DNA of 64,000 bases from Eledone cirrhosa (taxonomy: Eukaryota): positions 295,492,001 through 295,556,000 of the forward strand of contig OZ024743.1 of the NCBI GenBank assembly GCA_964016885.1, in the 5' to 3' direction. The notes below the pieces were generated by a model. The model was given only the letters and a program-made list of their open reading frames with translations, had not been told where the DNA came from and did not search any database. Every line of letters begins with the position of its first letter. Within the stretch, counting starts at the first letter, position 1. Made by a program: the position numbers and the translations under genes. Positions 41,290 through 45,350 of this stretch are shown here, piece by piece.

Positions 41290-44200
41290 AATTGGAATAA
41301 ATGCTCTGAAATAGCGATATATATGTGAATATAGACATAGAATATTCGAAAATATTCTGTATGTTTATAATAAACATTTTGAAGACCTAATCGCTATAGA
41401 ATAGAATACGTCACGTATTACAATTAGATTCTCGATAAAAGCAAGGGAAGTAATCTACGCGTTTCATTCTTGTTAGAAATCATCAGGACTACATATCCAG
41501 TGCTTTTATCGAGAATGACACAGCTAGAGACTTATAGAATACTTAGCTGTGTACAGGAACTGGTTTGAAAGAGCGGTTGCCGGTCCGGCAGAAATTAGAA
41601 ATTGGAATAAATGCTCTGAAATAGCGATATATATATGAATATAGACATAGAATATTCGAAAATATTCTGTATGTTTATAATAAACATTTTGAAGACCTAA
41701 TCGCTATAGAATAGAATACGTCACGTATTACAATTAGATTCTCGATAAAAGCAAGGGAAGTAATATACGCGTTTCATTCTTGTTAGAAATCATCAGGACT
41801 ACATATCCAGTGCTTTTATCGAGAATGACACAGCTAGAGACTTATAGAATACTTAGCTGTGTACAGGAACTGGTTTGAAAGAGCGGTTGCCGGTCCGGCA
41901 GAAATTAGAAATTGGAATAAATGCTCTGAAATAGCGATATATATGTGAATATAGACATAGAATATTCGAAAATATTCTGTATGTTTATAATAAACATTTT
42001 GAAGACCTAATCGCTATAGAATAGAATACGTCACGTATTACAATTAGATTCTCGATAAAAGCAAGGGAAGTAATCTACGCGTTTCATTCTTGTTAGAAAT
42101 CATCAGGACTACATATCCAGTGCTTTTATCGAGAATGACACAGCTAGAGACTTATAGAATACTTAGCTGTGTACAGGAACTGGTTTGAAAGAGCGGTTGC
42201 CGGTCCGGCAGAAATTAGAAATTGGAATAAATGCTCTGAAATAGCGATATATATGTGAATATAGACATAGAATATTCGAAAATATTCTGTATGTTTATAA
42301 TAAACATTTTGAAGACCTAATCGCTATAGAATAGAATACGTCACGTATTACAATTAGATTCTCGATAAAAGCAAGGGAAGTAATCTACGCGTTTCATTCT
42401 TGTTAGAAATCATCAGGACTACATATCCAGTGCTTTTATCGAGAATGACACAGCTAGAGACTTATAGAATACTTAGCTGTGTACAGGAACTGGTTTGAAA
42501 GAGCGGTTGCCGGTCCGGCAGAAATTAGAAATTGGAATAAATGCTCTGAAATAGCGATATATATGTGAATATAGACATAGAATATTCGAAAATATTCTGT
42601 ATGTTTATAATAAACATTTTGAAGACCTAATCGCTATAGAATAGAATACGTCACGTATTACAATTAGATTCTCGATAAAAGCAAGGGAAGTAATCTACGC
42701 GTTTCATTCTTGTTAGAAATCATCAGGACTACATATCCAGTGCTTTTATCGAGAATGACACAGCTAGAGACTTATAGAATACTTAGCTGTGTACAGGAAC
42801 TGGTTTGAAAGAGCGGTTGCCGGTCCGGCAGGAATTAGAAATTGGAATAAATGCTCTGAAATAGCGATATATATGTGAATATAGACATAGAATATTCGAA
42901 AATATTCTGTATGTTTATAATAAACATTTTGAAGACCTAATCGCTATAGAATAGAATACGTCACGTATTACAATTAGATTCTCGATAAAAGCAAGGGAAG
43001 TAATCTACGCGTTTCATTCTTGTTAGAAATCATCAGGACTACATATCCAGTGCTTTTATCGAGAATGACACAGCTAGAGACTTATAGAATACTTAGCTGT
43101 GTACAGGAACTGGTTTGAAAGAGCGGTTGCCGGTCCGGCAGAAATTAGAAATTGGAATAAATGCTCTGAAATAGCGATATATATGTGAATATAGACATAG
43201 AATATTCGAAAATATTCTGTATGTTTATAATAAACATTTTGAAGACCTAATCGCTATAGAATAGAATACGTCACGTATTACAATTAGATTCTCGATAAAA
43301 GCAAGGGAAGTAATCTACGCGTTTCATTCTTGTTAGAAATCATCAGGACTACATATCCAGTGCTTTTATCGAGAATGACACAGCTAGAGACTTATAGAAT
43401 ACTTAGCTGTGTACAGGAACTGGTTTGAAAGAGCGGTTGCCGGTCCGGCAGAAATTAGAAATTGGAATAAATGCTCTGAAATAGCGATATATATGTGAAT
43501 ATAGACATAGAATATTCGAAAATATTCTGTATGTTTATAATAAACATTTTGAAGACCTAATCGCTATAGAATAGAATACGTCACGTATTACAATTAAATT
43601 CTCGATAAAAGCAAGGGAAGTAATCTACGCGTTTCATTCTTGTTAGAAATCATCAGGACTACATATCCAGTGCTTTTATCGAGAATGACACAGCTAGAGA
43701 CTTATAGAATACTTAGCTGTGTACAGGAACTGGTTTGAAAGAGCGGTTGCCGGTCCGGCAGAAATTAGAAATTGGAATAAATGCTCTGAAATAGCGATAT
43801 ATATGTGAATATAGACATAGAATATTCGAAAATATTCTGTATGTTTATAATAAACATTTTGAAGACCTAATCGCTATAGAATAGAATACGTCACGTATTA
43901 CAATTAGATTCTCGATAAAAGCAAGGGAAGTAATCTACGCGTTTCATTCTTGTTAGAAATCATCAGGACTACATATCCAGTGCTTTTATCGAGAATGACA
44001 CAGCTAGAGACTTATAGAATACTTAGCTGTGTACAGGAACTGGTTTGAAAGAGCGGTTGCCGGTCCGGCAGAAATTAGAAATTGGAATAAATGCTCTGAA
44101 ATAGCGATATATATGTGAATATAGACATAGAATATTCGAAAATATTCTGTATGTTTATAATAAACATTTTGAAGACCTAATCGCTATAGAATAGAATACG

Positions 44201-44380
44201 TCACGTATTACAATTAGATTCTCGATAAAAGCAAGGGAAGTAATCTACGCGTTTCATTCTTGTTAGAAATCATCAGGACTACATATCCAGTGCTTTTATC
44301 GAGAATGACACAGCTAGAGACTTATAGAATACTTAGCTGTGTACAGGAACTGGTTTGAAAGAGCGGTTGCCGGTCCGGCA
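41290..44380 (-). repeat. Tandem array of a 310-bp HHR-containing unit, ~10 copies (retrozyme-like)
   Basis: ATTGGAATAA recurs at 41291, 41601, 41911 ... 44081. Only a few SNPs separate the copies. Confidence 0.97.
41450..41492 (-). ncRNA. Type I HHR of the first array unit (repeats every 310 bp to ~44282)
   Basis: Minus strand: GTAGTC-CTGATGA-tTTCT-aaca-AGAAt-GAAA-CGCG-TA-GATTAC. Helix I continues into a 16-bp ATTCTCGATAAAAGCA/TGCTTTTATCGAGAAT stem. Confidence 0.9.
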
Positions 44381-45350
44381 AACATACAGAATATTTTCGA
44401 ATATTCTATGTCTATATTCACATATATATCGCTATTTCAGAGCATTTATTCCAATTTCTAATTTCTGCCGGACCGGCAACCGCTCTTTCAAACCAGTTCC
44501 TGTACACAGCTAAGTATTCTATAAGTCTCTAGCTGTGTCATTCTCGATAAAAGCACTGGATATGTAGTCCTGATGATTTCTAACAAGAATGAAACGCGTA
44601 GATTACTTCCCTTGCTTTTATCGATAATCTAATTGTAATACGTGACGTATTCTATTCTATAGCGATTAGGTCTTCAAAATGTTTATTATAAACATACAGA
44701 ATATTTTCGAATATTCTATGTCTATATTCACATATATATCGCTATTTCAGAGCATTTATTCCAATTTCTAATTTCTGCCGGACCGGCAACCGCTCTTTCA
44801 AACCAGTTCCTGTACACAGCTAAGTATTCTATAAGTCTCTAGCTGTGTCATTCTCGATAAAAGCACTGGATATGTAGTCCTGATGATTTCTAACAAGAAT
44901 GAAACGCGTAGATTACTTCCCTTGCTTTTATCGAGAATCTAATTGTAATACGTGACGTATTCTATTCTATAGCGATTAGGTCTTCAAAATGTTTATTATA
45001 AACATACAGAATATTTTCGAATATTCTATGTCTATATTCACATATATATCGCTATTTCAGAGCATTTATTCCAATTTCTAATTTCTGCCGGACCGGCAAC
45101 CGCTCTTTCAAACCAGTTCCTGTACACAGCTAAGTATTCTATAAGTCTCTAGCTGTGTCATTCTCGATAAAAGCACTGGATATGTAGTCCTGATGATTTC
45201 TAACAAGAATGAAACGCGTAGATTACTTCCCTTGCTTTTATCGAGAATCTAATTGTAATACGTGACGTATTCTATTCTATAGCGATTAGGTCTTCAAAAT
45301 GTTTATTATAAACATACAGAATATTTTCGAATATTCTATGTCTATATTCA
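44381..45350 (+). repeat. Inverted block of ~3.1 copies of the same 310-bp unit, HHRs at 44564-44606, 44874-44916 and 45184-45226
   Basis: It is the reverse complement of the left array and ends at TCTATATTCA|(TA)n. Confidence 0.95.

Follow-up and report, generated by a model that had tools for sequence, protein, structure and literature searches.

Array in the Window

The window (the whole 64,000-nt stretch of Eledone cirrhosa DNA that was analyzed) contains a two-armed array of a 310-bp unit, set in a (TA)n tract beside a fragment of a coding Penelope-like element (PLE). Its features are:

39255..41121, + strand: neighboring 5′-truncated fragment of a coding PLE that includes the GIY-YIG end (PF01541 E=6.5e-4, a sub-threshold match); it carries an inverted arm of 113 nt, and its two fixed 3′ ends are separated by about 145 nt
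41121-41289: left half of the (TA)n target tract (TRF), with TTTA interruptions on the + strand as in the right flank
41289..44380, − strand (RNA sense): arm 1, 9.97 laps of the 310-nt unit, inner end at unit 87 and outer end at unit 78 (tailed end)
41289..41316, − strand: tail, covering unit 51-78, the interval that separates the fixed end sites; 37 nt at most if counted from unit 42
44380..44380: inner junction of the arms, a 1-nt overlap where unit position 87 is joined to 1
44380..45359, + strand: arm 2, 3.2 laps, inner end at unit 1 and outer end at unit 41-50 (short end), entering TA through the unit's own ATATATAT
44540..44628, + strand: 16-bp outer stem closing the ribozyme (44540-44555 with 44613-44628), in this copy with one mismatch at 44625
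44564..44606, + strand: predicted type I hammerhead, comprising helix I, CUGAUGA, helix II with a U.U base, GAAA and a palindromic ACGCGU helix III; predicted cut after 44600
45350-45714: right half of the (TA)n target tract (TRF)

The first-pass annotation had described about ten tandem and three inverted copies, nearly identical, non-coding and bounded by (TA)n, and each of these points holds. TRF reports 10.0 minus-strand units (41289-44380, period 310, 99%) and 3.2 plus-strand units, with TA runs on both flanks. The copies are more than 99% alike: compared with a reference unit (44690-44999), 4 differences are found over the 3092 nt of the minus arm and 2 over the 979 nt of the plus arm, and the variants within this array are singletons only. 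The unit has a GC content of about 34%, and its longest stop-free stretch is 59 aa in any frame of the multimer; it lacks an RT plus GIY-YIG ORF and is thus not an autonomous PLE. RNA 3′ ends point outward and 5′ ends meet at the junction. The outer ends, which had been placed some 36 nt apart within the unit, lie at positions 78 and 41 (to 50 when TA microhomology is included), 28-37 nt apart. No contig in four public contig sets spans the 44380 junction (44300-44465), an observation that weighs neither way.

Hammerhead Motif

The predicted hammerhead at 44564..44606 recurs at +310 and +620, and ten times on the minus strand with predicted cuts from 44246 to 41456; CTGATGA is found at +44570, 44880 and 45190 and ten times on the minus strand, and all 13 cores in the window are full. 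Helix I has 6 bp including one G.U (unit 185-190/222-227), the predicted cut, set by the GUA triplet, follows unit 221 (44600 in the window), and 16/16 pairs of the outer stem beyond helix I are Watson-Crick, as had been proposed. The palindromic helix III is likewise present; its self-duplex is valued at −9.5 kcal/mol and it can pair between two copies. Each unit had been said to carry an intact type I hammerhead ribozyme (HHR), for which the core, the GUA and the helices were indeed found, but a U.U pair at the base of helix II (10.1-11.1) had been overlooked. The axolotl HHR_Amex2 also has U.U at this position and cleaves better as a dimer (PMC7229834), and in Xenopus just 1/9 predicted retrozymes is described as cleaving (10.64898/2026.07.22.740005).

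At the Rfam gathering score there was no match in the window; HH9 came closest, its 19.2 bits (E=0.051) lying well under the cutoff of 52. In a comparison with shuffled sequences, the cut-to-cut monomer has a better fold than 100/100 of them (z −4.4), and the catalytic fold is absent from its MFE structure. Plant LTR retrozymes have a type III HHR within LTRs, with PBS, PPT and a 4-bp TSD; the 310-bp element differs in its type I topology, its tandem units and the lack of an LTR layout.

A Young Retrozyme Family

By sequence criteria the element is a non-LTR retrozyme. It is a non-coding, low-GC tandem unit within the range of 150-450 bp, has a type I HHR per unit and belongs to a dispersed multicopy family, like the metazoan non-LTR retrozymes, which occur in thousands of copies (PMC7229834). 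Counting by sequence patterns, we found 4,177 exact matches to one 43-nt HHR variant in the 3.0-Gb genome, and 1,015 and 1,122 TA-joined ends of the two types, against 0 for reversed controls. The window locus is a typical member of a family with more than 1,000 ends of each type, and not a one-off; the family is young. A degenerate pattern gave 16,751 matches, of which the first 100 comprise 87 of the 310-nt family and 13 of sister families. Two such families are older and 73-81% alike, with the same ends and their own hammerheads; both keep the core, which in one of them has a compensatory U3-A8 swap, and both have a helix III that is self-complementary.

We sampled 111 stretches. Apart from the window itself, all come from contig C1; the HHR pattern selected 11 of them, the tailed end 79 and the short end 20. 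Since 99/111 were picked through one end pattern, only the opposite end was free to vary in these. Arms were called at ≥60 nt and 94% identity.

Two-Armed Geometry and Ends

The sample holds 113 arrays, of which 101 are two-armed and 12 single-armed; among the latter one stops at a gap and at least two have a second arm of <60 nt. All 101 pairs diverge and none converge. Two run off their stretch, and the 99 that are complete have, without exception, one end at unit 42-50 (short) and the other at 76-83 (tailed). The set chosen by HHR pattern together with the window contributes 11 two-armed arrays that obey the same one-of-each-end rule. The genome search that the first-pass annotation had called for, with end points and copy numbers, thus yields the same architecture at about 100 loci. 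The arrays show the signature of EN+ PLEs, namely inverted 5′-truncated copies meeting head to head, with just one of the outer ends carrying a tail of about 30-40 nt. Where non-LTR retrozymes have TSDs, these exceed 4 bp; at the loci sampled TSDs are not delimitable because the targets are (TA)n.

At the short end T replaces C42 in about 52 cases, against 28 plain ones, which suggests that a (TA)n primer anneals over the unit's AUAUAUAU; the tailed end overlaps TA by 1-2 nt. Of 99 resolved inner junctions, 29 have inserts (a few of these being alignment artefacts), and microhomology of ≥2 nt is found at 37/70 insert-free ones, compared with 18% for random joins. At L036 the junction holds a 272-nt foreign piece with no match in the other DNA fetched. 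L041 and L049 have one inner junction in common; it is probably not inherited, since their haplotypes differ.

That the assembly inverted and over-expanded a repeat is extremely improbable. It would agree with the unspanned junction in the window, but about 100 loci have distinct junctions, fixed ends and locus-specific variants, and one contig run (X2, possibly the source of the assembly) has TA loose ends at unit 50 and 81. In each of three contig runs the unit is represented by one 340-nt contig (depth 10-15), whose nature is not interpretable.

Relation to Penelope-Like Elements

Inverted 5′-truncated copies with a one-sided tail of 30-40 nt are described as a PLE hallmark (PMC8557442; PMC3846280). 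In vitro, the anole PLE PAc, for which a dimer is predicted, cleaves both target strands and extends them from two adjacent internal start sites with the tail between them (PMC11167929); the two end sites of the arrays match this arrangement. The neighboring coding PLE family has the same two-end pattern, with two fixed TA-joined ends and both types at 9/30 loci, so that the likeness in arm-plus-tail geometry noticed at the window is borne out. The proposal that reverse transcription was primed at both target ends in the manner of PLEs also gains from the wider sample, with short and tailed ends at 99/99 loci, no convergent pairs and microhomology. We conclude that the arrays were very probably inserted by PLE-type twin priming.

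The neighboring PLE is at most a candidate for the kind of enzyme involved. Its family was rejected as parent, as there is no DNA homology between it and the unit. Nor is there homology of the unit to the 3′ ends of coding PLE fragments in 1.45 Mb of fetched DNA. A coding PLE at L159 was also considered as parent and is coincidental, another repeat intervening. Coding PLEs are attached to 0/30 sister-family loci. The unit had alternatively been envisaged as the pLTR of a coding PLE, amplified only locally, but this was not seen: in the DNA fetched, no coding PLE was found attached to the unit or to its sisters.

EN+ PLEs, including the Poseidon element PAc, share with the 310-nt family the inverted truncated copy, the tail of 30-40 nt, two start sites downstream of the HHR, and AT-rich or (TA)n targets (PMC11167929; PMC8557442; PMC3846280); the 310-nt family differs in having no ORF and arms made of many laps of one unit. 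Its short end is complementary to the target over ≥8 nt; PAc, by contrast, is described as starting without homology (PMC11167929). The non-autonomous PLEs of the Chlamys clade such as MRC1 are similar as non-coding PLE dependants with multicopy head-to-tail insertions, but are described as lacking canonical HHRs and as resembling their autonomous partner at the 3′ end (PMC8557442); no such partner was found for the 310-nt family.

Lap Variants and the Template

Across the 957 laps examined, 134 variants are singletons, and another 139, spread over 69 loci, are present in every lap of the two arms. The 81 loci at which each arm runs to one lap or more show 29 haplotypes. The chance of a random match is 0.125, yet the arms disagree at only three loci (L041, L061 and L174), so both arms are quite likely to derive from one molecule or one source unit.

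Among 35 fixed variants 19 were met once in the sample, and three of these were checked genome-wide. 127G is fixed in 18/18 laps at L182 and at no other locus; 309T is fixed also at a few other loci and 121A at many, so that the figure of 19 overstates the number of private variants. For a variant to be fixed at one locus alone, a monomer bottleneck is needed, unless its source is missing from the assembly. Two long mosaic arrays were considered as sources of uniform daughters and set aside: the C3 array carries 127G on a different background, and in the C1 array the cut-to-cut 121A monomers all carry 235A, which the checked 121A daughters lack.

Variants specific to a lap and mirrored between arms occur at three loci in 266 shared laps, against 75 unmirrored singletons. 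At L166 the outer two laps have one haplotype and the inward laps another, a switch that the two arms make at the same lap counted from their outer ends; one-lap variants are mirrored between arms at L067 and L099. The templates at these three loci were not a single monomer: they were multimers, or both RTs switched jointly.

We considered whether a PLE might have twin-primed on long linear multimers, transcribed from young homogeneous source arrays and left uncleaved, with the ribozyme incidental to copying. The end-register mirrored variants at the three loci speak for this, as do the weak monomer fold and the absence of a stop at the cut site, which fits here too; further, HHR cleavage is described as dispensable for PAc insertion in vitro, where unprocessed RNA is used (PMC11167929), in contrast to the 310-nt family, in which variants suggest selection on the core. 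Such templates could not fix a new variant in one step, yet 127G fills 18/18 laps at a single locus and is fixed nowhere else; the daughters are uniform, in contrast to the mosaic long arrays examined, just three mirrored loci were found in the 266 shared laps, and the transposed variants avoid the core. We regard uncleaved multimers as unlikely to be the general template.

The avoidance of the core is seen among HHR-region variants, of which 0/11 fixed and 8/20 singletons fall in it (p=0.028, a modest and post hoc difference); the fixed ribozyme variants sit at N7, in loop II or in helix pairs. This suggests that the HHR core is under selection. Elsewhere, unit 51-110 has 2/35 fixed variants against 39/134 singletons (p=0.003).

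An RT might instead jump from end to end between HHR-cleaved linear monomers with no circle involved, which would account for L166, where the haplotype switches, and for L041 and L061 with their partial arms. A cleaved linear template is expected to leave inner ends at the cut, however, and only 3/198 lie ≤5 nt from it, where 7 are expected. Jumps might also scar the joint, and an excess of changes at position 222, looked for as a ligation scar as well, was not seen (6 variants genome-wide, about chance). With arrays uniform despite 29 haplotypes in circulation, such jumping is very unlikely.

Equally doubtful is a fold-back origin, hypothesized for PLE inverted repeats (PMC3846280), in which one arm is target-primed and the other is its self-primed copy. 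Junction microhomology, haplotypes shared by the arms and the three mirrored loci would all follow from it. Against it, the shorter arm is not tied to either end type (the tailed arm is longer in 55/99 loci), a copy of a short-ended arm would be unable to gain a tail, and the shared laps hold the 75 unmirrored singletons, informative only if these are RT-derived.

Read jointly, the uniformity of laps, 127G, the lack of a pile-up or scar at the cut site and the avoidance of the core fit a circle made by the ribozyme. On these sequence patterns the template would usually, and we think probably, have been a monomeric circle.

Arm Length and Turnover

Mean arm lengths are 1.25 and 1.70 kb, on average 4-5 laps, with a maximum of 45 laps, and both arms exceed two laps at 64/99 loci. 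The spread of lengths is smooth (CV 1.0) and similar to that of neighboring truncated PLE arms; it is non-exponential (KS p=0.012), with too few short arms (20/198 below one lap).

Variants shared between laps occur in 5/7 arms of ≥14.5 laps, which are mosaic with higher-order repeats, and the later-fetched arrays of 23 and 46 laps are both of this type. Arms of about 15 laps or more have been reworked at the DNA level after insertion. The 195 arms of <14.5 laps have 4 within-arm shared variants and 103 singletons, where about 130 shared ones are expected at turnover equilibrium, a rough 1/j estimate that a single early burst would escape.

These data bear on whether the PLE inserted only short arms of 1-2 laps, which then grew locally by unequal crossover or slippage, in line with the local amplification suggested in 10.64898/2026.07.22.740005. 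The higher-order repeats in arms of 19-46 laps and the scarcity of arms below one lap are on the side of local growth, and the counts in shorter arms, which otherwise tell against it, are compatible with a single fast burst after insertion. Multi-lap arms on both sides at 64/99 loci, and a smooth spread with means of 1.2-1.7 kb like that of truncated PLE arms, tell against growth from such short arms, and we hold it to be improbable.

Proposed Mechanism

Our preferred explanation, which we consider fairly likely, is that a PLE RT-endonuclease would have primed on both cut strands and looped around one HHR-released, ligated 310-nt circle, producing two diverging multi-copy arms. Tandem transcripts would first cleave themselves after GUA, probably as dimers through helix III, and be ligated into circles, as has been demonstrated for the retrozymes of coral, mussel and axolotl (PMC7229834). 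Both (TA)n strands would then be nicked by a PLE protein, which by analogy with PAc (PMC11167929) is probably dimeric. One end would prime at unit 42-50 on the RNA's AUAUAUAU and the other at 76-83 with 1-2 nt of pairing, the end positions being those observed. Both RTs would run for the variable numbers of laps seen in the arms, presumably with strand displacement; the two cDNA 3′ ends would be joined by the microhomology or short inserts found at the junctions; and arms of about 15 laps or more would later turn over by DNA-level duplication, in keeping with their mosaic pattern.

In its most specific form, to which we lean slightly, this is a double rolling circle: an asymmetric PLE dimer, with one subunit per start site, would act on one ribozyme-made 310-nt circle to lay multi-lap cDNA on both break ends.

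Comparison with Known Retrozymes and Significance

The element class, the non-LTR retrozyme, is already known; the insertion signature was not found described for it. Reverse transcription on a circle to give tandem cDNA, with PLEs as candidate partner, is proposed in PMC7229834 without insertion evidence, and the word "inverted" is absent from its main text; the 310-nt family has insertions with a pair of diverging arms, ends at two fixed sites and (TA)n as target. RNA and cleavage are demonstrated for the retrozymes of that paper, whereas the 310-nt family is known from its sequence. Retrozymes have also been described as non-autonomous PLE derivatives (10.64898/2026.07.22.740005), similar in their tandem type I HHR units tied to PLEs. 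That study bases the link to PLEs on co-occurrence and pLTR homology and suggests local amplification. In the 310-nt family the link is drawn from the insertion signature, the DNA fetched contained no coding PLE with a homologous pLTR, and signs of local amplification are clear chiefly in arms that reach about 15 laps or more. Outside subscription papers and the supplements of PMC7229834 and 10.64898/2026.07.22.740005, we found no report in the published literature of two-armed, one-of-each-end retrozyme insertions or of lap-level template evidence.

With more than 1,000 young insertions, the lap-by-lap variants serve as lineage marks that tie both arms to one template; they fix the one-of-each-end rule and point to a monomer template. 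The family thereby bears on the use of retrozyme circles as PLE RT templates, which the main text of PMC7229834 proposes and does not demonstrate, and on how the inverted repeats of PLEs, tailed on one side, arise, which is called undefined in PMC8557442. A 310-nt unit with mapped start sites is also a substrate for an in vitro PLE assay. If true, the double rolling circle would be direct genomic evidence for animal ribozyme circRNAs as a transposition template, and the inverted-repeat-plus-tail structure of PLEs would arise from two RTs on one RNA molecule.

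Sister families

Two older relatives of the 310-bp retrozyme unit were located in other stretches of the same genome (L-numbers):

L074:4818-5400, L048:241-773, L185, L193 and L174, sister family with UUGAUAA core
L133-L162, older sister family, unit about 315 nt

The core of the former carries a U3-A8 swap, and its helix III is palindromic and longer (ACAGAGCUCUGU); its two-arm geometry is that of the 310-bp family. Copies of the ~315-nt family are 90% alike, with a canonical hammerhead core and GUC; its 2,648 candidates are a first-look count.

Unusual inner junctions

One array has captured at its inner junction a GC-richer foreign piece of 272 nt (L036:3099-3370), without match elsewhere in the 1.45 Mb of genome DNA compared. 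In another the inner junction is itself duplicated (L043:3843-4020, ~173 nt), making a four-piece switchback.

Other elements in the window

7058-8850, very long TA array, 1.8 kb
17645-18343 (minus), fragment of an RVT_1 reverse transcriptase (E=7e-18)
26430-26539, short palindrome in which CTGATGA occurs twice (26481 minus, 26488 plus)
45716-46630, non-coding fold-back element within (TA)n
46923-48638, truncated PLE, second family
52849-58687, very long TA array, 5.8 kb

The RVT_1 fragment, lying in a GC-richer stretch, is probably a LINE. The short palindrome matches the 310-bp family profile weakly (E=8e-4). The longer TA array is interrupted at 56949-57057 by 109 nt from the end of the coding PLE that neighbours the 310-bp array.

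The truncated PLE has inverted arms of 616 nt, a tail of ~65 nt and a predicted minimal hammerhead with palindromic helix III (ACAATTGT); its family is also present in L159, L165 and L092. Each arm of the fold-back element contains a hammerhead-like CTGATGA...GAAA (45918 minus, 46529 plus), and the arms are unequal, one having ~110 nt extra. A coding PLE in L215 is followed by a 3′ end similar to that of this fold-back, which looks like another PLE-type insertion.
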